From assembly GCA_016926735.1 (NCBI GenBank), contig JAFGOA010000143.1:1-22567 (forward strand): a stretch of DNA of 22,567 nt. Reading direction: 5' to 3'. This document shows, one piece after another, positions 445 to 17,469 of this stretch. The DNA comes from Promethearchaeota archaeon. GTDB taxonomy: Archaea; Asgardarchaeota; Lokiarchaeia; Sigyniarchaeales; SOKP01. Below the pieces are notes generated by a model. The model was not told where the DNA came from and ran no database searches. It saw nothing but the letters and a program-made list of their open reading frames with translations. The position numbers and the translations under genes were made by a program. How positions within the stretch are numbered: position 1 is the first letter of the stretch; each line of letters opens with the position of its first letter.

Positions 445-1773
445 ATGTTAGATATGATCTTTTATGATTTTAAGAGTCATAATTTTCAAAAACTACCTAA
501 AATTACTTTTAATACAGATAATAATCAGTTAAATCCTTATGTTTATTTTTTTTCGTATAATAATCCTCAAAATATAAGAGAAAAATATTATATTGCCTTT
601 TTTCCATATGAAGGATATGCTTGTTTATTTAATCAAGATCAGAAAAACAAGTTAAGTAGATTAGAATATAATTATAAAGATTTTTGCTACCCCTTTATTG
701 TAGATCAATCGAATTATATAAAAAAAAATGAAAAATCTCTAAAAGAAATAAATAGTTTAACTCTAATTATAGGAGATAATTGTAATTCAAATTGTATTTA
801 CTGCTATAATAAAAATCAAGAAACCAGATATAATAAATATAATTTTAAGAATTTCTTGAAAATAATTAAGAAAATATGTAAAAGATATAATATAAAAAAT
901 ATTTTTTTTTTTTCTAATGGTGAGCCCACATTATATTGGGAAAAATTCAGACAAATACTTGATGCTACAAGAAATTTTGATATAAATTATCAATTAACTA
1001 CCAATGGAGTTATTTCAAATCAAGAAGTATTGAATGAAATTTTAATATATAATTTTTCTATTTTAATAAGCATTGACGGAATGGAAAGAATTCATAATTT
1101 CCATAGGCCATTAAAAAAAAATGAAAATAGCTATAATCAAGTGAAGAAATTTATAGAATGGTGTGTAGATAATCTTGATAGGAACAATAAAATATTCTCT
1201 AGAACTACCATAACAAAATATAATGTAGATGATTTAATCCCTATAGCACATTATTTAAGCAACTTAGGTATAAAAAACCAGAGATTTGAAAAAGTCTGGA
1301 ATGTTCCTGAATTAGAACCCAATATTAAGAAATTTATGCATAATATAGTTAAGTTACAGATTTATACTGATTATAATAATATTAATCTAAGTGGATCCTA
1401 TTTTCCTTCTTCCAGTTCACAACATTATACAATTGGATGCAATTCCTTTTCAGGTGAAAATTTAGTTATTTCAGAGAGTGGAGATGTAAGTTTTTGTTTA
1501 TCTCCAAATAAATATACAATCTGGGGTGAAGTTAAAAATCAAAGGGGTCATATAAAATTACAATATTATTCAAAAAAAAAAGATATTGAATCTCAAAGAG
1601 AAATATTAACAAAAAAATGTTATTCATGTCCAATTCAATGTATTGGTCCTTGTATGAATCCTGAGGTAGAATCTAAAAAAGAAAATATGATTTGGTGCAA
1701 TGTAAAATTATGGATTTTAACACAATATTTAAAAAGAAAGTTTGATAAAAGACTAAGTGAATTAAAGAAATGA
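445..1773 (+). CDS. Radical SAM enzyme with SPASM domain (putative peptide maturase)
   Basis: CNSNCIYC (CxxxCxxC), NGEPTL, LTTNG and ISIDG motifs. C-terminal GC...GDVSFC plus CYSCPIQCIGPC...WC auxiliary-cluster cysteines. Confidence 0.93.
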   Translation: MLDMIFYDFKSHNFQKLPKITFNTDNNQLNPYVYFFSYNNPQNIREKYYIAFFPYEGYACLFNQDQKNKLSRLEYNYKDFCYPFIVDQSNYIKKNEKSLKEINSLTLIIGDNCNSNCIYCYNKNQETRYNKYNFKNFLKIIKKICKRYNIKNIFFFSNGEPTLYWEKFRQILDATRNFDINYQLTTNGVISNQEVLNEILIYNFSILISIDGMERIHNFHRPLKKNENSYNQVKKFIEWCVDNLDRNNKIFSRTTITKYNVDDLIPIAHYLSNLGIKNQRFEKVWNVPELEPNIKKFMHNIVKLQIYTDYNNINLSGSYFPSSSSQHYTIGCNSFSGENLVISESGDVSFCLSPNKYTIWGEVKNQRGHIKLQYYSKKKDIESQREILTKKCYSCPIQCIGPCMNPEVESKKENMIWCNVKLWILTQYLKRKFDKRLSELKK

Positions 1774-3827
1774 AATATAATTCGAAGATTGGATTAAAAG
1801 CCAGAAATTTAATAAAATTAAAATCAATTATTCCTATTCCAAATTTTATTACAATTGATCCAGAGTTATTTCTTCAAATTTATAATAATTTTGAGATTTC
1901 AAATGAATTAAGTCCTGATAGACCTGATGAAATTAAAATAGTTTCAGAAGAAGCTATAAAGAAAGTACATAACATCCCTTCTGATATATTAAACATAGTT
2001 ATAAAAGAAATTATCGACGCTCAACTTCAAGAACCGCTTATAATACGGTCATGTGCTTCAATAGAAGATCAAGATATTAAATATAATATTTTAGCAGGAA
2101 TTTTTGAGTCAATAGGTCCGATTAATGGGAGAAAGGAAATAGAACAGGGAATTTTAACTGTAATAAAATCTCTCTATTCTCCAAAAGCTATATTTCAAAT
2201 GTTAATAATGGGTATTTCGATTAAATCTGTATTAATGGGTATTATTATCCAAGAATATATTATAGGGGAATATTATGGTGTAGTATTTTCACATAATCCT
2301 CTAACTGGAGAAAAACAATTAATAATTGAATATTCTGAAAAACCTGAAGGAGTCACTTTAGGAAGTGGGGAATCAAAGATAATATATGGATCTGATGATT
2401 TTGATACCAATAATTATAATTTAAACATACAGATTATTTCACAAATTAAAAAATATATTAATATTTGTTTGAATTTACTGAATCATCCAATAGATATGGA
2501 GTTTGTTATTAAAAATAACGAATTATATATATTACAAGTAAGAGAATTGATATTACATAGTCAAAATAAAAAAGATGAAAAGATTGATAAGAGTTTTTTA
2601 AATATTGCTGAAGGAATTGTATCTTCTCCAGGATTTTGCATAGGTATTGGTAAGTATATAGATTCTTATTCCGAAGAAATTATTGAAAGAGCGAAAGATA
2701 ATGAAATTATACTCTCTGAAGTACTGGATTTGGGGATCCTCCCATGGATTGCAAATGCTAAAGGTTTTTGTACAATAGCTTCAGGATTTGCATCACATGC
2801 TTCTATTATTGCTCGTCAAATGAGAAAACCCATGTTAACAGCTTTAAATATATCCAGAGATCAATTAAGATTATTAGATGAGAAGAAATTTATTTTAAAT
2901 GCTACAGCATCTAAAGGATACATATTATCCACTAATGAAATTAAAGATTTAATTAATAAAGAGAGGGAATTAGATTTTTATTTTCTAAATTGGACATTAT
3001 CAGATCTATTTTCATATAGATTAGATAATATCAAATCGATTATTTTTAAAAAAAACCATTTGCTATTATTTGAAAAACCGGAAGAAGTGATAATTTTTTG
3101 TGATCTTGAAGAAAGTACTCATTTAATAGATCCTATTAAAATCTATTTCAAATCTCTTTATTCCAATAAAATAATTAAATTTGGATATATTGATGAGTAT
3201 TATGAAATATGGCCTGTAATAGTGATATATCGTTCAAATAAAGAAGATTTTAAATTGCTTGGAATTATTAAGGAACTTTTTGAAGAATTAAAATTTGATG
3301 AGATAAAAAGTAAAATTCAAAAATTAAAGAATGAGATTAATAAATTACATATAAATTTACAAAATAAAATTACATTGAGTTCATTTGACCAAATGAATAA
3401 TCTACAATTCTTATATGATATAATCCAACAAATTAGACTTAAATCTACAACGCTTACCGCAATAAATCGAATATTATTTGACTTTGGAGATCGTTCACTT
3501 AGTGAAATATTAAAACATAAATTTGAAGATCCTGCAATTATTTTATCTCAATTAGAACAAGGAATACCACTTAAAAGTATGGGAATTCAAGAACCAAGTT
3601 CTTTTTTAGTCTTAGAATTCTATTTAAAACTTACAAAATTAAAAAATAGCATGGAAATACGATTTGATGAAGATAAATTAAATCAGTATAATATTATATA
3701 TGATAAAATACAAAAACTCTCAAAATTATATAGAAAGGATTTTGGTGCATGGGATATTATTCTCTTTAAAATATCGAAAAGTCTTAATATCAAAAATTAC
3801 ATATTTGACTTCGAATACAATGAATGA
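1770..3827 (+). CDS. PEP-utilising/dikinase-like enzyme: PPDK N-terminal ATP-grasp domain, phospho-His swivel domain, unknown C-terminal domain
   Basis: IGLKARNL, IIRSCASIED, AGIFES, QEYI..GVVFS, PIDMEF and LYILQVR (PPDK_N). GFASHASIIARQMRKP is the His-phosphocarrier motif. ATGA overlap with the radical SAM stop codon. Confidence 0.88.
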   Translation: MKYNSKIGLKARNLIKLKSIIPIPNFITIDPELFLQIYNNFEISNELSPDRPDEIKIVSEEAIKKVHNIPSDILNIVIKEIIDAQLQEPLIIRSCASIEDQDIKYNILAGIFESIGPINGRKEIEQGILTVIKSLYSPKAIFQMLIMGISIKSVLMGIIIQEYIIGEYYGVVFSHNPLTGEKQLIIEYSEKPEGVTLGSGESKIIYGSDDFDTNNYNLNIQIISQIKKYINICLNLLNHPIDMEFVIKNNELYILQVRELILHSQNKKDEKIDKSFLNIAEGIVSSPGFCIGIGKYIDSYSEEIIERAKDNEIILSEVLDLGILPWIANAKGFCTIASGFASHASIIARQMRKPMLTALNISRDQLRLLDEKKFILNATASKGYILSTNEIKDLINKERELDFYFLNWTLSDLFSYRLDNIKSIIFKKNHLLLFEKPEEVIIFCDLEESTHLIDPIKIYFKSLYSNKIIKFGYIDEYYEIWPVIVIYRSNKEDFKLLGIIKELFEELKFDEIKSKIQKLKNEINKLHINLQNKITLSSFDQMNNLQFLYDIIQQIRLKSTTLTAINRILFDFGDRSLSEILKHKFEDPAIILSQLEQGIPLKSMGIQEPSSFLVLEFYLKLTKLKNSMEIRFDEDKLNQYNIIYDKIQKLSKLYRKDFGAWDIILFKISKSLNIKNYIFDFEYNE

Positions 3828-4052: not shown

Positions 4053-4166
4053 ATGAAAGTCTTGAATAAAGATGATATTTTCAAACTTTTCAACCAACAT
4101 AGAAATCAATTGAAGAATAAGGGAACATATTTTTATTATTTTGGTAATAAAATTGAGACATTATAA
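4053..4166 (+). pseudogene. Possible truncated N-terminus of an MNT-type nucleotidyltransferase (MKVLNKDDIFKLFNQHRNQLKNKG...)
   Basis: 37-aa ORF whose first ~24 residues resemble the amphipathic N-terminal helix of minimal nucleotidyltransferases. It has no GS..DxD motif and runs into the 3' end of the opposite-strand gene. Confidence 0.35.
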
Positions 4167-4726
4167 GTACCAAGATTTTGTCCTACTATTGTCTTTATCC
4201 AATTATTATTATTAATTATTTTATTAAAATAATTATAATCTGATGGTGATAATGATTTTTTGAGCAAATCTAAGTCTTCTATGATTGGAAATTCGGGGAA
4301 ATCTGTTAATTTTGCATTAGGTGATATTCCTTTAAAATTTAATACCAATTCCAGTACTTTAAGATAATCATTATTATATTTTTTTAAAGACTTAAAATAA
4401 CCTTGAACTGTAGATGGCTTAACATTAAATCTTTTAGCTATATCAGAAATATTAACTCTAAGTGCTTTTAATTGAAGTGAAATTTCAATCTTTCGTGCCC
4501 TTGAATTAATATTACTTTTGTTTTTAATTTTATTTTCTATCGGAATTAATTCAATCAATTTATGATTATATAACCAATTTAATAATTTAGCATTATTACT
4601 TTTTTGTTTGATTAAAGTATTGGATATTTTAATTGGAATATTATCTTTGATTGCTTTATCAATTATTTTTAAAAAGTCTATAAATGGTTTTTTAAGTGAT
4701 TTTATTTCAATGAAATTTGAATTCAT
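4136..4726 (-). CDS. Hypothetical protein with helix-turn-helix motif
   Basis: 196-aa ORF starting 3 bp after the ATPase stop. NISDIAKRFNVKPSTVQGYFKSL is HTH-like. Confidence 0.65.
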   Translation of the reverse strand: MNSNFIEIKSLKKPFIDFLKIIDKAIKDNIPIKISNTLIKQKSNNAKLLNWLYNHKLIELIPIENKIKNKSNINSRARKIEISLQLKALRVNISDIAKRFNVKPSTVQGYFKSLKKYNNDYLKVLELVLNFKGISPNAKLTDFPEFPIIEDLDLLKKSLSPSDYNYFNKIINNNNWIKTIVGQNLGTYNVSILLPK

Positions 4727-4729
4727 TTT

Positions 4730-6760
4730 TTATTCCGGTTCCTCTTTTATTATATTTATAAGTTCCTTAAAAACTTGGATCATTAAACTCTCTGGATTAT
4801 TTTTTATATCTGATTTATCAAAATAATCCCAATTAAATTCTACTCGCTCATTTTTTTCTTTAATTATATTATGTTGTTTAAGATATTCAAGTGCCTCATC
4901 AAAAGAATTTTTTAGTAAGGGTTGTTTTATTAGATTTTTAATTGCATTGATTGTTCGGTATGAATAAACTTTATTTTTATTTCCCAAACAAATTATTATT
5001 TCTATAGCTGTTCTTTTCGAAGTTTCATTAATACTTTTTAATTCTGTTAATAAATTGAGATATGATTCATTAGGAAAAGAGATAGTTGGTTTAATTGGTT
5101 CTTCAGAAGATTTTATTATAGTTTGAGTTTCTTCTTCAGTTGGAATTTCTTCTTCAGTAGGAAATAAATTAGTTAGTTTTCCATGAAAATCTTTATTCAT
5201 TAATCTCAACAATTTATCAAAATCTTCAAATTTTTCATTAAGTTGAGAATAATTAATCTTTCCAAGGCCAACAAGACAGTTTAATAGCGTTTGATCGTTG
5301 ATAATTATTGGAATAATTAATTGTATATCTATGTCAGGATCGATATATCCAAAATTTTTCCATTTATGAATACATTCACTAACATATTCCTCAGTTAAAT
5401 CTTTACAAAAGAGGAAAAAAATCACTTTTGAATTTTTATTTTTTACACAATTAATTACTTGTTTTGATTTACCCAAATCAAATGATTCTGGATTGCTAAA
5501 TGACTTAATTTCAGCATATAACTCTATTTTACCTCCTTTAACGGCCATAAATTTACCATCTATTAACTTACCTTCTCCAACATCAACATGTTTTTTAATA
5601 AAATGAAAGTTCAGAAAATTTAAGTAACTAGCAAAAATCGGTTCAATTATCTTTCCAATAGTTAAATAATGAGATCTATGCTTTTCTGCTGTATTATATT
5701 CATTTTGACCATGTTTTATTTCATCTGTGAGATTAATAAATGATCTTATAGAGGATATTATTGCTTGATTTGCTTTTCTCCTTGATAATTTTTTATCTAT
5801 TTTATTTTTCAAGGTTAGTAAAAATGTATTGAAAATTTCATCATCAGCTTTTTTATAGGCTTTTTCCAATATAATAAGCCATTTTAGCATAGCTTCTTCC
5901 GCTTCATCATCTTGATATACTCCTTGTTCTCGTATATGTACATAAGGTCCTGAAGAAGAAACTTTCATCATTTCTGAGGATATTCTCTGTATTCCTGGAG
6001 CTCTATCACTCTGATCGCTCCTAATCGAATTATAGACTCTTGGAGTTAGACAAAATATTTGGTATAATCGAAAATTTGAAAGTCTATCTAATAACTTTCG
6101 AAAAAAATACTGTCGTTTTAAAAAATTTTTACTCCATATGGATTCGTCCTCTAATTTTGATAACCAATCATCGCATTCATCATACATAAATAAAAAAGCG
6201 ATTTTATATTTTGAAACAAATTCTATTATATCAAATACTATTTTTAATAATCTTTCTTCATCAATTAAAGGTAAATGAGAAATCTCAGTTCGAATATTTG
6301 AAATTTTCATATCTATTCCAGGAGAACTTTCAATAATTCTCTCAAGTTCATTTAGATATTTATGAATTTTATCTAAATGTTCGGGAGCATTTTTATTTTT
6401 TCTAAATTCTACAAGTAAATTTAAAAAATTCTCAAATGCATTTTGGTCATCTTTAAAATCCTTAGTTCCTTTACATAATTCTAGCTGTTTTGTTAATATT
6501 TGTGCCGCTTCTTTCTCAATTTGTTCACCTAAAAAAGTTGCGGTTAGATCTGTGGAACCATTAAAAACTACCGGGATAATTACAGAATAAGGGGGAATAC
6601 TACGATTTCTATTATTATTTATGATACTCTTTATTAATTCTATATATTGAGTCTTTGAACCTCCGTAATCTGATTCATAATATTGGGCGCCAGTTTCATT
6701 TTTATCATTAATTGCGATTCTATTAATATTACTTTCAAATTCTCTAACACCTTTTTTCAT
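4730..6760 (-). CDS. P-loop ATPase-like protein fused to a PD-(D/E)xK nuclease-like domain and probable C-terminal winged helix; frame is open upstream to 6940
   Basis: Divergent Walker A SDYGGSKT and Walker B FLFMYDE. GKIIEP...LIDG...YAEIKSF fits the E...D...ExK restriction-endonuclease pattern. The C-terminal FDEALEYLKQHNIIKE is wHTH-like. Confidence 0.7.
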   Translation of the reverse strand: MKKGVREFESNINRIAINDKNETGAQYYESDYGGSKTQYIELIKSIINNNRNRSIPPYSVIIPVVFNGSTDLTATFLGEQIEKEAAQILTKQLELCKGTKDFKDDQNAFENFLNLLVEFRKNKNAPEHLDKIHKYLNELERIIESSPGIDMKISNIRTEISHLPLIDEERLLKIVFDIIEFVSKYKIAFLFMYDECDDWLSKLEDESIWSKNFLKRQYFFRKLLDRLSNFRLYQIFCLTPRVYNSIRSDQSDRAPGIQRISSEMMKVSSSGPYVHIREQGVYQDDEAEEAMLKWLIILEKAYKKADDEIFNTFLLTLKNKIDKKLSRRKANQAIISSIRSFINLTDEIKHGQNEYNTAEKHRSHYLTIGKIIEPIFASYLNFLNFHFIKKHVDVGEGKLIDGKFMAVKGGKIELYAEIKSFSNPESFDLGKSKQVINCVKNKNSKVIFFLFCKDLTEEYVSECIHKWKNFGYIDPDIDIQLIIPIIINDQTLLNCLVGLGKINYSQLNEKFEDFDKLLRLMNKDFHGKLTNLFPTEEEIPTEEETQTIIKSSEEPIKPTISFPNESYLNLLTELKSINETSKRTAIEIIICLGNKNKVYSYRTINAIKNLIKQPLLKNSFDEALEYLKQHNIIKEKNERVEFNWDYFDKSDIKNNPESLMIQVFKELINIIKEEPE

Positions 6761-9499: not shown

Positions 9500-9961
9500 A
9501 TGTGTGACTTTAAATATATAATATATATGGATAAAGAAAGAATTAAAAGATATAAAGAAAAACAGGAATATTTTAATAAAGTGTTTGAGAATCTGATTGA
9601 TTGGATAAAAGACATTACAGATGATGATTTTGTATATAGACTAAATCTTCATGATCAATTTTCAATTTACCATGCATATCAAATTTTAATAGAGATTTCT
9701 GCAGATTTATCTGCTATGATATTGAAAGATATAAAAATACTCCCTAAAGATGATTATGTTAATTTTGATGAATTAGCAAAATCAAATATCCTAAATAAAG
9801 ATGTAGCTTATCACTTAAAGCAAGCAAATGGATTACGAAACCATATTGTTCATGGTTATAATGGTTTAAATGAATCAATTGCATTTAACGAGATAAAGAA
9901 GTATATTCCATATTTTAAAGAATTTAGAGAAGAGATTAATAAATGGTTGAAAAAAAACTAA
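9500..9961 (+). CDS. HEPN (DUF86/HepT-like) RNase toxin; the true start may be ATG 9527
   Basis: LRNHIVHGY matches the RX4H(x)Y HEPN motif. Overlaps the downstream MNT gene. Confidence 0.88.
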   Translation: MCDFKYIIYMDKERIKRYKEKQEYFNKVFENLIDWIKDITDDDFVYRLNLHDQFSIYHAYQILIEISADLSAMILKDIKILPKDDYVNFDELAKSNILNKDVAYHLKQANGLRNHIVHGYNGLNESIAFNEIKKYIPYFKEFREEINKWLKKN

Positions 9962-10338
9962 TAGAACAAATTAGAAATGATTTTACTTTAATTATAGAAA
10001 AAAAAGACATTATCGGTATTTTAATATATGGCTCATATTCAAAGAATCAACAAATAAATCGGAGTGATATTGATATCTGTATTGTAGCTCCAAATGAAGA
10101 TTCTATTGAATTATTAGATTTAATAGCCGGTAATGTAGATATAATGAAGAAAAAATATGATGTTAGAATTTTTTCTGAACTACCATTATTTATGAAAATT
10201 CAAATTATAAATGATGGGATATTGATTTATACTCTTGATAAATTTGATTTATATGAATTTTTTTATAAATATCGAAAATTATGGAATGATCAGCAAAATA
10301 GACAAGAACTATCCAAAGAAGAATTACTGACTCTTTAA
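9943..10338 (+). CDS. Minimal nucleotidyltransferase (MntA-like antitoxin)
   Basis: ILIYGSYS...SDIDICIV is the GS-x10-DxD Pol-beta motif. Paired with HEPN. Confidence 0.9.
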   Translation: MVEKKLIEQIRNDFTLIIEKKDIIGILIYGSYSKNQQINRSDIDICIVAPNEDSIELLDLIAGNVDIMKKKYDVRIFSELPLFMKIQIINDGILIYTLDKFDLYEFFYKYRKLWNDQQNRQELSKEELLTL

Positions 10339-11218: not shown

Positions 11219-12394
11219 TCAACTTTGTTGAACCAATTTAAGACATTCTTGGTAAAAATGACTACCGTAATTATTATTTGAATGAATTGAAGATTTTATT
11301 GTCTCATTCTTTTTTTTGGTTCTTCTTCCCCTCATTAAATCTACAAATGCTTCTAGTCGTGTTCTAAATCCTTCTATTCCACTTTGTTCATCGAATGAAA
11401 AGTAGATTATTGGTAAGTCGTATATTCCTTTTAGTTTATTTGTAATAATTGTTCTGGCAGTTACTTCTGGCATACAAGTAAAAGGATATGAATGAACAAA
11501 ACCGTCAAATCCAGCTTTAGCGTTGTCTATATACTGTCCGATTACCCAAACGCATTCTCCTCCAATATCCATTGGCATATATGGTTTTGCAAGATGTTCT
11601 AACCATTTTCGATGATAATTTAAATGAAATTTATGAGCAATCCAATCCCATAAACTTAAGCACTGATATATTTCTACACCCATTTCTCCTAACTTTCTTC
11701 GAATATCTAAATTAACATATGGTTCTAATGAAATATATATTTCTCCAGCAAGACCTACTTTTAGAGGTTTACGTGTTTTATCTATATCTAAATGTTCAAA
11801 ATCATTCTTAATAACAGATCTAAATTCTCTAAGTCCTTTATTAGTATTTGTTTCATCTAATTTATGAAGTAAACTATTTACTATTTTTGTTGTATCTCCC
11901 TGATTTCTTTCATATGCCCTAAAGATTCCTTCTGCGGTTTGAATATCTTCAAGATATTTTGCTTTTTTTAAAAAATAAAGAACTGATTTCACGAATTTTG
12001 GATATAGAGAAAAACTTGATTTACCGGATATCTTGAATAGGGTCTGAACCCATTGAAAATTTAATAAATCTGCTTGATCCAAAGGTATCAATCTGAATTT
12101 GTCATAACCGGCATCTCTTAAGATTCTTTCCTGAACACTTGCATAAAAACCAAATCTACAAGGACCACAGTCAATTGCCATTATAATTGTATCAGCACCT
12201 TTGTCTAATGCACTTTTAAGTTCTCCTAATGTAGGTTTAAATGGAAAACAAACAAATTCAGGACTATGCTTTACGCCAAATTTTACTAGTTCCCTATTTG
12301 CGGGTTCAGGTAAAACTACTTCCACACCAAGATTTTCAATTAATGTTTTGAAGGCCACCCATGAAGTTCCCATCCTTGGGAATGTTGCTCGCAT
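11219..12394 (-). CDS. 2-hydroxyacyl-CoA dehydratase (HGD-D)-like Fe-S protein resembling the PlsR/Ger reductase module
   Basis: CFPFKPTLG, CGPCRFGFY, KVGLAGEIY, PFTCMPE and FDEQSG..GFRTRLEAF motifs. Confidence 0.82.
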   Translation of the reverse strand: MRATFPRMGTSWVAFKTLIENLGVEVVLPEPANRELVKFGVKHSPEFVCFPFKPTLGELKSALDKGADTIIMAIDCGPCRFGFYASVQERILRDAGYDKFRLIPLDQADLLNFQWVQTLFKISGKSSFSLYPKFVKSVLYFLKKAKYLEDIQTAEGIFRAYERNQGDTTKIVNSLLHKLDETNTNKGLREFRSVIKNDFEHLDIDKTRKPLKVGLAGEIYISLEPYVNLDIRRKLGEMGVEIYQCLSLWDWIAHKFHLNYHRKWLEHLAKPYMPMDIGGECVWVIGQYIDNAKAGFDGFVHSYPFTCMPEVTARTIITNKLKGIYDLPIIYFSFDEQSGIEGFRTRLEAFVDLMRGRRTKKKNETIKSSIHSNNNYGSHFYQECLKLVQQS

Positions 12395-12599
12395 ATTTTA
12401 ATAACCTTAGTTAAAAATAAATTTTGTTATTTTATTTATAAGAACTATTCTTGAAAATACTACATTTGTAAAATTATTATCGAATTAAGCTATTTTTAGT
12501 AAAATGTAATTGTTTATTAAAATAGTAATCTAATTAAATAAAAATATTTTATTTAAAAAAGTTGGGATAGAAACCAAACATTTATAAAAAAAAATATCA

Positions 12600-13061
12600 T
12601 TAATCCTCTAAATAGACTTTAATATTATTGATAAAGTCTTGTATTTTTTGTTCTTGTCCCTCCTCAGCAGGTCCTTTCATACTCTTCATTTTTACTTCTA
12701 AGACTTCTGGATAGACATTTTCAATATGCTTTGCATTTCTTATTGTTTTCACCATCCCCTTTTTAAATAATCTCTTGGGCTTTAATCTATGAGTATAACA
12801 TATTATCGTTTTAGGAATTGGTTCCTTTCTATTAGTATCTATTTCTTCAACAAACTTTTTCATTTCTCTATCTACTCCAAATTGCATTATCCTAGTAGTT
12901 AAAATGAGCCCATAAAGGTTATCTGTATCATTGTTAAGATTAAAATCACCTATTCGTTTAATTTTAACATCAAACTTCTCGCTAAGGCCTCTAGCTAGTC
13001 TTTCTGCTAAAATTCTTGAATTCCCATAAAGAGAATTATGAATAATATATATATTCTTCAT
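12600..13061 (-). CDS. Flavodoxin-like protein (paralog 2)
   Basis: N-terminal IIHNSLYGNS..LAE flavodoxin phosphate-loop pattern; 153 aa. Confidence 0.72.
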   Translation of the reverse strand: MKNIYIIHNSLYGNSRILAERLARGLSEKFDVKIKRIGDFNLNNDTDNLYGLILTTRIMQFGVDREMKKFVEEIDTNRKEPIPKTIICYTHRLKPKRLFKKGMVKTIRNAKHIENVYPEVLEVKMKSMKGPAEEGQEQKIQDFINNIKVYLED

Positions 13062-13084
13062 TCTTTTTCTACTCTTTATAATAA

Positions 13085-13546
13085 TTAACTTTTTAAAAAT
13101 ATCTTTAGGTTATTAATATATTCATTAATTTTTCGTTCTTGTCCTTCCATAATGGAACCTCTATTTCCATCAACTGTTACTTCTAGATAATTAGGATAAA
13201 TACTCTTGATATTATTTAATTTTCCTAATGTTTTATCCATTCCTTTCTTGAAATGTTCTCTCCATTTCATTTCATGCATGTAGAATACTGCCGTTTTAGG
13301 AATAGTTTTTTTTCTATAAGAATCAATTTTTTTAATAAATTTCCTTATTTCCAAATTTGGTCTAAGTGAAATAATCCGAGTAGCGATAATTAGTCCATAA
13401 AGGCCATTTATATCACGCTCAAAGTCAATATCTTTTATATGGTCAATTTTCGTTTCAAAGTCATTTTTGAGGCCCTCAAAAATCGTTTGTGTTACGCCTT
13501 TTGAATTCCCAAATCGAGAATTATGAATAATTAATATTTTTTCCAT
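13085..13546 (-). CDS. Flavodoxin-like protein (paralog 1)
   Basis: IIHNSRFGNS motif; 153 aa; aligns without gaps to its neighbour at about 40% identity. Confidence 0.72.
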   Translation of the reverse strand: MEKILIIHNSRFGNSKGVTQTIFEGLKNDFETKIDHIKDIDFERDINGLYGLIIATRIISLRPNLEIRKFIKKIDSYRKKTIPKTAVFYMHEMKWREHFKKGMDKTLGKLNNIKSIYPNYLEVTVDGNRGSIMEGQERKINEYINNLKIFLKS

Positions 13547-13738
13547 TTTTCTATATCTTTAATAAATCAATTTTAATTTGATATATTTATTGATTAAAAT
13601 TTTAGTTTTTTATATAATTTCTTTAGTCCAATTTTTAATAAATAATCTTATATAATAGATATGTAATACTATATGATTTACGAAGTATTGAATAGAATAA
13701 AAATAAGATATAGCATAAAAATTATAATAATAAAAACA

Positions 13739-14773
13739 TTATACCTTAATTTTAGATTTTTCTTGTTGGAATTTTAGCTCGATTTTTTTTTTTTTCCGTT
13801 TAATCATATCAACAAAACTTTCAATACGGGTCAACATACCTGCTTCCCCTGAATGTTCATCCATTATAATTGCAAGATAAGGAAGTCCAACAACTTTCAT
13901 ATCTCTCATGATCAATTCTGAGATCAAACTATCTGGACCACATGCAAAACTAATAAGAAATATAACTCCATCGATTTCATTTCTTCCTTCCGTAAGAAAA
14001 TATCTAATAGCTTGCATTATTTCCTCTTCATGTCTCCAATAGTTCCTTAATTTATTATTAACAATCACAGGTGTTTTAAAAACAGATTCAGGCATATTCT
14101 CAATTGTAAGAACATCTACCTGTCTATCACTTAGTTTTTTTTGAAAATCTAAGTTAATAAAGGTATCAAATAGATTATATCCATGACCAAGCAATAATAA
14201 TCTTATATCATTTTGAGTCTTTTGTTTTGGTAATTTAAAAGGTATATTTCGATTTACGAGTCTTAGAGCATAATTAACTGGAGCACCTTCTTTTAGAAAA
14301 CTTAAATATTGATTATAATAATTTTTAGCTCTATTATATGCCTCAAGTGATCTTGATCTACTTAATCCTAACTGTTTTCCAAGTTCTACAGCAGAATATG
14401 ATATTGGAAATTCTTTTACATTTACTTCAAAATTTAGAATTTTAGGGATATTTGGTAAAATTTTAATTACATCTGGAAGTGAAAGGAATTTTGGACAAAA
14501 ATATGCGTCTTTAACTTCTGCAATATATCTTGGAACAAATATAAAATCTAAATCCTGATGATTTGTGATTAAGTTTAGCACATGACCATAGTATATTTTC
14601 ATTGGGATGCATAGTTCTCCAAAACCTTGTTGGACACCCTTTTCAACAATTTTTTTATTTGTTAGAGGGCTTAATACGATTTCTACGTCCATTTCTTCTA
14701 ATATTTTTTTCCAAAAAGGAAAATATCGATAAAAATGTAATGCCCTTGGAATTCCTACTTTTAATTTATTCAT
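13739..14773 (-). CDS. DUF2229 / acyl-CoA dehydratase activase-related Fe-S protein (PlsA/Ger-like module)
   Basis: KVGIPRAL..Y..FPFW, LCIPMKIYYGHV, FVPR..YFCPK, FACGPDS and DEHSGEAGMLTRIESF motifs. Confidence 0.85.
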   Translation of the reverse strand: MNKLKVGIPRALHFYRYFPFWKKILEEMDVEIVLSPLTNKKIVEKGVQQGFGELCIPMKIYYGHVLNLITNHQDLDFIFVPRYIAEVKDAYFCPKFLSLPDVIKILPNIPKILNFEVNVKEFPISYSAVELGKQLGLSRSRSLEAYNRAKNYYNQYLSFLKEGAPVNYALRLVNRNIPFKLPKQKTQNDIRLLLLGHGYNLFDTFINLDFQKKLSDRQVDVLTIENMPESVFKTPVIVNNKLRNYWRHEEEIMQAIRYFLTEGRNEIDGVIFLISFACGPDSLISELIMRDMKVVGLPYLAIIMDEHSGEAGMLTRIESFVDMIKRKKKKIELKFQQEKSKIKV

Positions 14774-14810
14774 TTTTCTCTATGCTACCGAATTTTAGGA
14801 TTAGTTTTAT

Positions 14811-16520
14811 TTATATGTTTGGATTATTATAAACTAAAAGATCTTTTATTCTTTCCATTAGGCTATTTGTTAACCGTTTTAATTCTTTATAATCGGGTAT
14901 TGGTTTATCAAAATATTGAGCGTGTTCCATAAATGGTTTCCCTGCTTGAAAGGTGGCTCCTTTTCCACAATATAATACTTTTGAATATTTTGGAAAAGTA
15001 TTTTCTGTTCCTGTTATCCCTACAGGTATTATTGGAACTTTAGTTTCAATTGCTAGTCTTATAGCACCCGTGTGAGGCTCAAGAAGTTCTCCTCCGCCTC
15101 TAGAAGACGTTCCTTCTGGATATATCATGACTAAATTACCTTTTCGAAGTAAATCTCTTGCAAAATTATAACTTTCTCTATCTCCTTCTCCTCTTTTTAA
15201 TGGAAAAGCGCTATGTGTTCGAATCCATGCGTTAACAATAGGTATTTGAAAAAGCTCTTGCTTAGCCATTTGCCATAAAATTCTATTTTTATCTTTAATA
15301 ATACATTTTGCATTGAGAATAACATCCCATTCAGAATTATGGTTAGAGCAAATAATAGCTGGGCCTGTGTCCGGTACATTTTCATAACCAAATGATTGAT
15401 ATGGAAAGAAATGATCTGTGAGAAAATTAACAATTATATGATTGAATCTCCATGCTAATTCATGAAGAACATCTTTAAGGCCAAATTCATCCAAGACTTT
15501 CATGAAAGTAATCCATGCGTCATCAATTGATTGTAAGATATAATGTTGATAATATTTCATCCAATAGTTAAAATCTTTTGATTTTTGTTCTTCTTTTTTT
15601 TTATCTTTTGGAGATCCAATTGAAAGCTCTTCTTTTTTCTCTTTAAAAGATCTTTTAATTTTTGAAAAATTACCTCTTCCTTCAAGTAAATCAAGTATCT
15701 TTAATCTTAGATCTGCAGTTAATTGTTTTGCTACTTTAGGTGTTAATTTTCCTTTATATTCATCATAATAAATTGCTTTTCCTACTCGTACACGAACTTG
15801 AACAGGAGTTCCGATTAAATTTCCTTTTGGAAGGGCATATTTTGAGCCAAGAATGGCCATAGGTACTATAGGTACACCACATTCAGCCGCTAACCGAACA
15901 GCTCCTGTTTTAAAGTCCCCCATTTCTCCATCCATACTACGTGTTCCTTCCGGAAATAATCCGATCCATTCTCCTTCTTGGATCTTCTTTTTAGCATAAG
16001 CCCATGCTTTCTCTACAGATTCTTTATTACCCCTTTCTCCTAATGAAAAAGCACTTAAATTTTTAAATAATGTTCGAACAATTGGTGTTTTAAAATTATC
16101 ATCTTTACTCATATAATTAATTTTACTATTACAGGCACATCCTGTAAAAAATGGATCTAGATGACTTTCATGATTACTTACAACAATACCTCCTCCATAG
16201 TCAGGAAAGAGTTCTCCATCTTCATATGTTGCATCATATCTCCACATTAATCGGGCTGCCTGCTTTACCCAAATATTAGCGGCCCACCATTGAAGGCGTT
16301 GTTCTTTTTCAACTAATCCAAAATGTTCAATTATTTTATGATAAAAATCATTTAGAGGATCAATAGGATTGTATTTCAATAAGTTATATAGAAAATTTTG
16401 ATGAGGTTTCTTCCATTGTATCTCATGAGAAACCACTTGCTCTTCTTCTTCATGCTCTGCTATTGATTTCTCTTCTATCTCTTTTTCGATTTTATCTAAA
16501 ATGGTTTTTTCAATAACCAT
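14811..16520 (-). CDS. Tandem double-domain PlsC-family (lysophospholipid) acyltransferase
   Basis: Domain 1: SNHESHLD, FPEGTRS, FKTGAVRLA, VPIVP. Domain 2: SNHNSEWD, YPEGTSS, HTGAIRLA, VPIIP. Both HX4D motifs are intact. Confidence 0.92.
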   Translation of the reverse strand: MVIEKTILDKIEKEIEEKSIAEHEEEEQVVSHEIQWKKPHQNFLYNLLKYNPIDPLNDFYHKIIEHFGLVEKEQRLQWWAANIWVKQAARLMWRYDATYEDGELFPDYGGGIVVSNHESHLDPFFTGCACNSKINYMSKDDNFKTPIVRTLFKNLSAFSLGERGNKESVEKAWAYAKKKIQEGEWIGLFPEGTRSMDGEMGDFKTGAVRLAAECGVPIVPMAILGSKYALPKGNLIGTPVQVRVRVGKAIYYDEYKGKLTPKVAKQLTADLRLKILDLLEGRGNFSKIKRSFKEKKEELSIGSPKDKKKEEQKSKDFNYWMKYYQHYILQSIDDAWITFMKVLDEFGLKDVLHELAWRFNHIIVNFLTDHFFPYQSFGYENVPDTGPAIICSNHNSEWDVILNAKCIIKDKNRILWQMAKQELFQIPIVNAWIRTHSAFPLKRGEGDRESYNFARDLLRKGNLVMIYPEGTSSRGGGELLEPHTGAIRLAIETKVPIIPVGITGTENTFPKYSKVLYCGKGATFQAGKPFMEHAQYFDKPIPDYKELKRLTNSLMERIKDLLVYNNPNI

Positions 16521-16716
16521 AATTTGTTCACTTCACTAAATTATTAATAAGGATAATAATATTGAAAACCTTAAAAGTTATATTTATTTAAATAGCTATT
16601 TGTTTAATTTAAGATTTTAGGTATATAACATCTGAAACTATAAAAAGCTAATAAAAAGATTGCAAATCTGTATAGTATGATTTATTAAGAATATCTAAAA
16701 CAAATAATAATAAAAA

Positions 16717-17469
16717 TCACCTTTTAATTTTAGATTCTATATCGAAAAGAGTAAAAAGGTCAATGATACTATCGAGAATTAAATCTGGTTGATAATCTAA
16801 TAATAAATTTTTATCACTAATTCCACTTGAAATTCCTATTGTCCATATTCCTGCTTCTTGACCTGTTTCAATATCTGTTGGCATATCCCCAATCATTAAG
16901 AATGAATTTTTATCTAATTTTCTATATTGATTGAATATAGGTTCTAATGCTGCTGGATCTGGTTTTAACGAGGGAACTTTATCTGCGCCATATACTCCCT
17001 TAAAGAATTTATTAATTCCCTTTTCTTGCAAATGATTGAGTATATTTTCCGTTTGGCTATGAGATATTATATAAAGATCATATTTTTTTTTTAGATTAGA
17101 AAGTAAAGTCTTAACACCCGGGAAAAATGGTGCTTTTCTCTCATATTCAAGATATTTTGCATATATCCTAGATGCTATTTCCAATTTTCTTATATAATCA
17201 AGATGTTCAAGTGACTTCATAAATTTAAAAATTTTATGTGATTGTAAAATAATCTTCGGAATTGGATATCCTTGTATTGATTCTAAAATTGAACCAATTT
17301 CTTTTAAAGCTAAATCAATATCAGTTTTTATGTTAAGTTCTTCAAATATTTCTATTATAGATTTCCTTAATATCTCTTGTATATCTAACAAGGTACCATC
17401 AAAATCAAAAATAATAATTTTTATAGAATTTGATTTGATCCAATTAACCAATTGATTTTCGTTTTCCAT
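16717..17469 (-). CDS. HAD-superfamily phosphatase (phosphoglycolate phosphatase-like)
   Basis: IIFDFDGTLLD, KPDP and MIGDMPTDI motifs. Confidence 0.92.
   Translation of the reverse strand: MENENQLVNWIKSNSIKIIIFDFDGTLLDIQEILRKSIIEIFEELNIKTDIDLALKEIGSILESIQGYPIPKIILQSHKIFKFMKSLEHLDYIRKLEIASRIYAKYLEYERKAPFFPGVKTLLSNLKKKYDLYIISHSQTENILNHLQEKGINKFFKGVYGADKVPSLKPDPAALEPIFNQYRKLDKNSFLMIGDMPTDIETGQEAGIWTIGISSGISDKNLLLDYQPDLILDSIIDLFTLFDIESKIKR

Follow-up and report, generated by a model that had tools for sequence, protein, structure and literature searches.

Acyl esters of glycerolipids are reduced to alkyl or vinyl ethers by PlsA/PlsR and by the glycerol ester reductase Ger, two enzymes that are not separable by sequence (PMC13274423). 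PlsA/PlsR of Clostridium perfringens corresponds to CPE1194/1195, and single-gene forms occur in Enterococcus, Lactococcus, Bifidobacterium and Listeria (described in extracts of PMC12838417 and PMC9702350). Homologues of Ger have already been published for Lokiarchaeota and Heimdallarchaeota (PMC13159169, extract), as has the acyltransferase PlsC for Lokiarchaeota (PMC6737245 and PMC6431249, extracts), and Asgard PlsC and PlsY are also treated in extracts of PMC13400652 and PMC13037920. The role of lokiarchaeal PlsC is called unresolved in part of a review (PMC9385802), and archaeal PlsC has been judged patchy and unlikely to act in membrane synthesis (PMC6431249, extract). Here we describe a locus on a 22,567-nucleotide contig of Promethearchaeota archaeon (GenBank assembly GCA_016926735.1, contig JAFGOA010000143.1; the whole contig is hereafter the window), in which a tandem PlsC-family acyltransferase gene stands next to a split reductase resembling PlsA and Ger, an arrangement conserved throughout the Lokiarchaeia. 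No description of this PlsC-reductase linkage was found in the literature, most subscription papers lying outside our coverage; the parts are known, and their combination is apparently undescribed.

The window is contig C190 of the host genome (G000; 3.88 Mb, 99.3% complete, 4.8% contaminated). Six open reading frames (ORFs), all on the minus strand, together span 11219-17469, and two more members of the cluster lie elsewhere in the genome:

16717-17469, minus strand: HAD-superfamily phosphatase, 250 aa (Pfam HAD_2, 1.7e-27; motif I DFDGTLLD)
14811-16520, minus strand: tandem two-domain PlsC-family acyltransferase, 569 aa (PF01553 twice, E 1.5e-60)
13739-14773, minus strand: DH1, Red1-like subunit with DUF2229 and HGD-D, 344 aa (invariant Cys 55, 93 and 278)
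13085-13546, minus strand: flavodoxin-like ORF 1, 153 aa (Pfam below cut-off; local insertion)
12600-13061, minus strand: flavodoxin-like ORF 2, 153 aa (43% identical to ORF 1; local insertion)
11219-12394, minus strand: DH2, Red2/PlsR-like subunit with DUF2229 and HGD-D, 391 aa (invariant Cys 49, 79 and 307)
G000 C49:876-1907, outside the window: cognate activase, 343 aa (Cys-rich tail; TIGR00241, 199 bits)
G000 C163:2718-3395, outside the window: PlsC-like gene lacking the catalytic His, a displaced cluster member

In order from the HAD gene to the DH2 gene, the intergenic gaps measure 196, 37, 192, 23 and 205 bp. An earlier note on this DNA, made from the letters alone, had reported six co-oriented genes, a 37-bp spacing between the acyltransferase and DUF2229 genes and no activase in the window, and all three are exact. 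DUF2229 (PF09989) is found in the two reductase ORFs at E = 5.5e-44 and 1.2e-12, HGD-D is weak in both, and none of the six proteins has a transmembrane segment by hydropathy. A sigma-70 promoter and terminator scan returned 61 against 50.2 expected, under a model not applicable to archaea, and three RNA runs of the same study yielded only 19-50-base pieces. The host is a Lokiarchaeia-type Asgard archaeon, a case that the earlier note had considered: among the 120 best relatives of DH1 (72-89% identity), the named ones nearly all carry Lokiarchaeota/Promethearchaeota or other Asgard labels, and the titles of 67 GTDB loci comprise 42 Promethearchaeota, 12 other Asgard phyla, 12 given as "archaeon" only and 1 bacterium, the odd-titled loci (~75% identity) being probably mislabelled bins.

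These 67 loci, nearly all of one family and not independent, were annotated against the window proteins; 39 further regions were taken from another search and from the listed matches (150 of 503 listed). Of the 64 loci that offer 400 bp of flank or more, 57 have PlsC immediately upstream of DH1, and 61 have it anywhere in the locus. Where the flank is long enough (45 loci), 37 have the HAD gene upstream in the same orientation, 31 of the 45 with PlsC as its immediate successor; the gene is present, too, in the other-order version of the cluster. Downstream of DH1, the 37 loci with 3.5 kb of sequence contain a DH2 orthologue (24), an activase (21), a short PlsC-like gene (15) or a two-activase gene of the PlsA type accompanied by one for a 460-470-aa partner (8). 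The conserved order is HAD, double PlsC, Red1-like and Red2-like genes, then the activase and the His-less PlsC-like gene, and the cassette is also found in three single-contig genomes (G129, G132, G137). Beyond the family, five others of the class supplied 15 orthologous trios of DH1, DH2 and activase, and in 11 of these PlsC is no more than 3 kb upstream; two of the other four start at a contig end in or at the HAD gene, and two are without PlsC. The linkage thus persists across families although the architecture of the acyltransferase changes. As a control, paralogous Asgard trios (DH1 28-35% identical) gave PlsC matches at 0 of 15 loci, and families f12 and f17, though rich in DUF2229 (30/31 and 10/10), gave no match to the window PlsC (0/31 and 0/10). 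The conserved linkage of PlsC with the DUF2229 gene that the earlier note had made a touchstone of its proposal is therefore borne out: the adjacency of PlsC and the Red1-like gene is far beyond chance, and the cassette is real and class-wide in Lokiarchaeia.

PF01553 itself occurs in 137 of the 153 genomes of the class, whereas other Asgard classes return only weak matches to the window PlsC as query. Within the family, 94 of 129 genomes have a DH1 orthologue and 92 of 129 a DH2 orthologue, in single copy except for one genome with two DH2; of the 20 genomes without the double PlsC, 19 also lack DH1 and 10 keep DH2, a pattern expected from assembly gaps. At eight loci (L049, L050, L057, L067, L096, L100, L102, L103) two ether-reductase-like systems stand side by side, the second being the two-activase PlsA-type gene (865-985 aa), which follows DH1 at loci from which DH2 and the activase are displaced.

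Both domains of the double PlsC keep the HX4D motif (H117/D122 and H394/D399) and the (F/Y)PEGT motif in an alignment of 10 orthologues, and the protein scores 169 bits with TIGR00530 (cut-off 103) and E 6.6e-17 against the PlsC structure 5kym. By motifs and models it is a PlsC-family acyltransferase, and acylation of lysophosphatidic acid is its putative activity. The third PlsC-like protein (on C163) keeps the Asp of motif I and has lost the catalytic His. The architecture varies between families: there are two separate genes in f2, and in f4-f6 (L113, L115, L116, L117, L119) the acyltransferases are fused into one three-domain protein of 870 aa. In f4-f6 the HAD protein (490 aa) has a 245-aa C-terminal extension with no Pfam match and no usable Atlas match. 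We also noted a LarA-family gene between the three-domain acyltransferase and the long HAD gene (L116), a PEMT/ICMT-family methyltransferase between the PlsC pair and DH1 (L112:4114-4890, G138), and a tandem duplication of the double-PlsC gene that places four acyltransferase domains ahead of DH1 (L045, G155). The only other PF01553 match of the host genome is on a 3.6-kb contig (C84:1-3637, L261) with an EPSP-synthase/MurA-like fragment and a lipoprotein-like ORF; this contig looks bacterial and is probably a contaminant, and its acyltransferase was ruled out as a member of the pathway.

The earlier note had made the reductase depend on kinship to PlsA/PlsR and Ger rather than to dehydratases of amino-acid fermentation, and the comparisons favour the former. 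DH1 matches all 14 fused ~1400-aa Asgard proteins in their Red1 region (E 8e-31 to 2e-17) and DH2 matches 9 of the 14, while the C49 activase scores best on Act2; the host's own HgdA and HgdB (on C33) match 0 of these 14 PlsA-type proteins. With hhalign, the DH2 profile aligned to the C-terminal part of a fused Listeria protein over 302 columns (probability 98.2, E 4.8e-14), and had no significant match to two HgdAB-type subunits (probabilities 4.0 and 0.8); on its architecture and an extract of the review PMC9702350 we take the Listeria protein to be PlsA. To the fused bacterial records, DH1 is ~23-26% identical in Red1. Three Cys per Red domain are common to the trio and to the fused Listeria, Collinsella and Fusobacterium proteins: C55/C93/C278 of DH1 are kept in 65 of 65 aligned rows and in 21 of 21 fused ones, and C49/C79/C307 of DH2 in 33 of 33. 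The CxxCxNxC tail of the activase is present in 41/41 split and 20/21 Act2 rows, and in 0/21 Act1 and 0/6 HgdC rows. In the PDB, the best sequence match for DH1 has E 0.003 over 60 residues, and DH2 has none; an AlphaFold2 model of DH2 (predicted local distance difference test, pLDDT, 89) has the fold of HadBC, DCCP and BzdNO (Foldseek E 2e-7, template modelling score about 0.5, 10-16% identity). By these matches the trio resembles Red1, Red2 and Act2 of PlsA/Ger, and not HgdAB/BcrBC.

The activase that the earlier note proposed to seek elsewhere in the genome was recovered. The host genome has two DUF2229 matches, both inside the window, and three BcrAD_BadFG matches, on C33, C4 and C49. The C33 match is HgdC adjoining an HgdAB pair and the C4 match lies among sugar genes; the C33 activase was ruled out as partner of the reductase, since it adjoins an HgdAB pair of its own and has no Cys tail. 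In a relative with 89% identity in DH1 (L040), one contig is colinear with C190, then C49, then C163, so that the displaced remainder of the cluster consists of the C49 activase, which has the Cys tail, and the PlsC-like gene on C163. The facing ends of C49 and C163 carry LAGLIDADG-like and MerR/resolvase ORFs. Fused ~1400-aa PlsA/Ger-type proteins occur in other Asgard genomes; none was found in this one.

The flavodoxin-like pair, which the earlier note had taken for dedicated electron donors, did not hold its place in the system. Both Pfam matches are below cut-offs (E 5e-4 to 8e-3), as are those of five homologues, all of which match flavodoxin models, and a single-sequence fold (pLDDT 40) is unusable. 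Only 1 of the 67 loci has a flavodoxin-like match, weak (33%) and on the opposite strand; L040 aligns to both flanks of the flavodoxin stretch and not to the stretch itself; and G152, a genome of the same genus, carries this pair (90% identical) and the cluster on separate contigs. Of the 153 genomes of the class, 64 have homologues, whose neighbours vary among the 11 loci inspected. The pair is a recent local insertion and not a conserved part of the cluster; its absence from this position in relatives rules it out as part of the system, and the two ORFs might serve as donors like any flavodoxin, nothing singling them out. In three genomes of the genus (G000 C160:61-2111, L161; L237; L238), a third flavodoxin-like gene and a group B1 [FeFe] hydrogenase are convergent.

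The best reading of the cluster, to which we assign a probability of about 0.5, is the synthesis of acyl-glycerolipids followed by reduction of their esters to ethers. The locus of the window would form the first section of a lipid cassette found throughout the Lokiarchaeia. Its two PlsC domains, with the motifs observed in both, would move acyl chains, most likely from acyl-CoA, onto a glycerophosphate-type acceptor, and the HAD phosphatase would strip the phosphate from the precursor or the product. From the genes, their homology and their conserved linkage we infer that DH1 and DH2 form a two-cluster [4Fe-4S] heterodimer, which the ATP-dependent activase found on C49 would feed with single electrons as a homodimer; the lipid substrate would be an acyl ester and the product an alkyl or vinyl ether, as with PlsA/PlsR and Ger. 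The electron donor would be a general ferredoxin or flavodoxin, and not specifically the two inserted ORFs. The two-activase PlsA-type gene that adjoins DH1 in 8 of the 37 loci speaks for this reading. One might speculate further that the Lokiarchaeia have had, ever since their last common ancestor, a complete pathway for ether lipids with fatty-acid-derived chains and an archaeal backbone, in which the tandem PlsC acylates glycerol-1-phosphate or the free hydroxyl of geranylgeranylglyceryl phosphate and the split reductase yields n-alkyl or hybrid isoprenoid/n-alkyl ether lipids of the membrane; lacking a source of glycerol-3-phosphate (G3P), PlsC would use the archaeal backbone. Bacterial PlsY and PlsC accept both stereo-forms of glycerophosphate (PMC13400652, extract), which makes such acceptors, based on glycerol-1-phosphate or hybrid, chemically plausible, and chimeric lipids were proposed earlier for Lokiarchaeota (PMC6737245, extract). 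We hold this hybrid route to be unlikely; if true, it would give the widespread split PlsA-like clade its first function.

Several observations weigh against acyl-glycerolipid synthesis with subsequent ester reduction. Some concern kinship. In quick trees (under LG+G4 for the split and fused forms; the other also quick) that hold neither C. perfringens PlsA/PlsR nor T. maritima Ger, 44 split rows, bacterial and Asgard, stand apart from 21 fused rows (Shimodaira-Hasegawa-like approximate likelihood ratio test, SH-aLRT, 99), as do the split activases from the fused ones, and the activase tree does not decide between split with Act2 and split with HgdC (65/37; approximately unbiased test, p-AU 0.29). 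The trio comes with one stand-alone activase, and the tested enzymes with two activation domains (BB) fused to Red1. In the host genome, moreover, the cluster is split over three contigs. In favour of the reading, the PlsC-linked Lokiarchaeia trios form one clade (SH-aLRT 97 and 99 in two trees). Judged from sequence, the trio is built like PlsA and Ger but lies outside the tested fused branch. Of the split PlsA/PlsR/Ger-like modules that the earlier note had named, and of the phylogeny it had proposed as a check, the kinship in domains and matches has stood; orthology with the tested fused double-activase enzymes has not, the trio belonging to a separate split clade outside the fused one and its activase core being placed nearer neither to Act2 nor to HgdC.

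The bacterial counterparts give a divided picture. Among 13 strains with "architecture 3a", alkyl or vinyl ethers are present in 8 and absent from 4, with 1 unknown (PMC13159169, extract, Table S21; three further rows marked B but of architecture 1 were omitted as ambiguous); the 4 of 13 single-activase strains without ethers speak against ether formation by the trio, and an extract of the same paper calls the functionality of a single activation domain unclear. Among split-only strains, 4 of 5 make plasmalogens or monoethers (PMC13274423, Table S7), a correlation noted in the text of that paper; these four and the 8 strains with ethers above speak for ester reduction. No assay of the split form was found in the literature, most subscription papers again being outside coverage. 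We collected 62 bacterial metagenome loci (L162-L223) with one clostridial DH1, many of them short and biased to Bacillota-like hosts. They have the same DH1-DH2-activase order at 29-43%, 29-40% and 50-57% identity, respectively, and a PlsC neighbour at 0 of 62, a further point against, so that the linkage of PlsC to the trio is a feature of Lokiarchaeia within our sample. A spoVAD neighbour is present at 31 of these loci, and the Bacillota-like trios often lie behind a sigma-factor/spoVAD/GerA-family sporulation region, a hint of a role in the spore membrane.

Precursor supply raises the remaining doubts. PlsY and GpsA were not found in the host genome, acyl carrier protein (ACP) was found in 0 of 4 genomes of the genus, and GlpK was not above its cut-off in the host genome (best 234 of 590 bits), strong GlpK-like matches being confined to 14 of the 61 genomes of the order. 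In the one published lipid analysis found, a cultured Lokiarchaeon gave only phytane and biphytanes after ether cleavage, and the genes for ester lipids were said to be lacking (PMC7015854), although an ether-cleavage method might miss ester lipids (PMC13400652, extract). The host genome has one AMP-binding enzyme scored (2 candidates), two CDP-alcohol transferases and one marginal CTP_transf_1 match. Its archaeal genes for geranylgeranylglyceryl phosphate synthase, a digeranylgeranylglyceryl phosphate synthase-like protein and a reductase lie together on C62, and CarS is present too. PF13685, the glycerol-1-phosphate dehydrogenase type, was found at E<=1e-15 in 0 of 61 genomes of the order, the host having only an iron-containing alcohol dehydrogenase; a divergent glycerol-1-phosphate dehydrogenase has been described in Lokiarchaeota (PMC6737245, extract), and this blank says little.

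Inside the PlsC-linked clade we observed a daughter trio in which Red1 is fused to an N-terminal FAD_binding_4 domain (L073, L077, L080, L087, L103; for example L077:11790-16566), often inserted directly behind DH1. The nearest Atlas clusters to this domain are named Delta(24)-sterol reductase-like (0.97). Its assignment as an alkylglycerone-phosphate synthase is unsupported, matches to that enzyme being weak (E 2.5e-5) and the Atlas clusters being DHCR24-like.

Other functions of the cluster have to be weighed against the ester-reductase reading. The trio may act on a CoA thioester, dehydrating or reducing acyl-CoA so as to tailor scavenged chains or to produce fatty aldehyde or alcohol, and so feed the acyltransferases. 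The relatives of the DH2 fold with solved structures (HadBC, BzdNO, MbdON, DCCP) all have CoA esters or small molecules as substrates, the split clade is distinct from fused PlsA/Ger, and the daughter trio with its DHCR24-like FAD domain shows that the chemistry can be re-tooled. We nevertheless find this rather unlikely: in sequence the trio is akin to Red1 and Red2 of the PlsA type and not detectably to HgdAB, most split-only bacteria produce ether lipids (PMC13274423), and the labels given to the 45 commonest neighbour clusters, most of them without a Pfam scan, include no recurring CoA-transferase or acyl-CoA dehydrogenase. The same evidence bears with more force on the idea that DH1 and DH2 are a 2-hydroxyacyl-CoA dehydratase of amino-acid fermentation or a benzoyl-CoA reductase, next to PlsC by accident. 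The fold family is the same, there are weak HGD-D matches, and Lokiarchaeia do ferment amino acids (PMC7015854); but the host has a separate HgdAB and HgdC set on C33 whose proteins match neither the 14 fused PlsA-type proteins nor the DH2 profile, and the PlsC linkage is class-wide. Homology, Cys and linkage data largely refute this idea, to which we give hardly any credence, and the fermentation dehydratase as such was ruled out by the missing HgdAB profile match and the HgdABC set elsewhere.

The remaining alternatives accept a lipid role and differ as to substrate or product. The cluster might salvage or remodel bacterial lipids of the sediment, by dephosphorylation, trans-acylation of lyso-lipids and ester/ether interconversion, instead of building from glycerophosphate. 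This would agree with the failure to find GpsA, PlsY, ACP or a bona fide GlpK and with the single AMP-binding enzyme scored in the host genome, and also with four fairly complete genomes (G160, G171, G198, G206) without orthologues of PlsC, DH1 and DH2, which make the set dispensable. It seems improbable, as both acyltransferase domains remain intact throughout the class, lipases and transporters are not among the fixed neighbours, and G3P is not strictly needed, PlsC taking both stereo-forms of lysophosphatidic acid (PMC13400652, extract). Quite improbable in our view is that the products are neutral or storage lipids, with the HAD phosphatase turning phosphatidic acid into diradylglycerol and the His-less protein acylating or binding it, or that the acceptor is not glycerol, the membranes being purely isoprenoid. 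A phosphatase and a third PlsC-fold domain are indeed fixed (the latter at 15 of 37 loci, and fused in f4-f6), no CdsA or head-group gene is, and only isoprenoid chains were reported from the cultured Lokiarchaeon (PMC7015854); however, the third domain is without its catalytic His, and CarS and the two CDP-alcohol transferases elsewhere in the genome might accept the product of the cassette.

In the rest of the window, a HepT/MntA-like toxin-antitoxin pair (9500-10338, plus strand), just under the NCBIfam cut-offs, lies where the cluster breaks off. Further away, a radical SAM protein with PapB-like maturase matches below cut-off overlaps a PPDK_N/PEP-utiliser protein that has a long unannotated C-terminus (445-3827, plus strand), and a 676-aa ORF without Pfam or NCBIfam match is followed by a helix-turn-helix protein (4136-6760, minus strand).

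If acyl-glycerolipids are indeed made and reduced to ethers by this cassette, it would give archaea closely related to eukaryotes a means of making lipids of a non-archaeal kind; how eukaryotes themselves came by bacterial-type membranes has been called an enigma (PMC12872458, extract). Inheritance of the route by eukaryotes is not implied, since other Asgard classes have only weak matches to the window PlsC. A fixed PlsC cassette, in a class where 137 of 153 genomes have PF01553, contrasts with the verdict that archaeal PlsC is patchy, and conversion to ethers may explain why ester lipids might be missed. The cassette names a small set of genes and specific lipids to look for in Lokiarchaeia, and bears on the function of the split PlsA-like clade.

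Set beside the known systems, the cluster combines features of several. T. maritima PlsC (PDB 5kym) and the lysophosphatidic acid acyltransferases share the HX4D and PEGT motifs with both window domains; the window protein differs from them as a tandem fusion that comes with a His-less third domain and a reductase trio, and a partner of the PlsY/PlsX type was not found with it. HadBC/HgdAB, BzdNO/BcrBC and DCCP have the fold and the ATP-driven activase in common with the trio, whose activase carries a Cys tail that HgdC does not have. PlsA/PlsR have the same parts list of Act, Red1 and Red2 and the CxxCxNxC activase tail, but the Lokiarchaeia trio consists of three proteins with one activase instead of two, falls in a separate clade and is linked to acyltransferases. 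Ger of Thermotoga maritima and Desulfatibacillum alkenivorans has the same Pfam domains (PF01869, PF09989, PF06050) in a fused BBD.. protein, whereas the Lokiarchaeia form is split. The three-gene form itself is that of the split sets of Moorella, Caldicellulosiruptor, Thermoanaerobacter and Fervidicola (3a, B+D+H). Bacterial split trios from the metagenome loci share a clade with the Lokiarchaeia trio, to which the named strains would belong by their architecture; the Moorella-type sets are only correlated with ether lipids, and the bacterial split loci are without the PlsC neighbour that the Lokiarchaeia loci possess.

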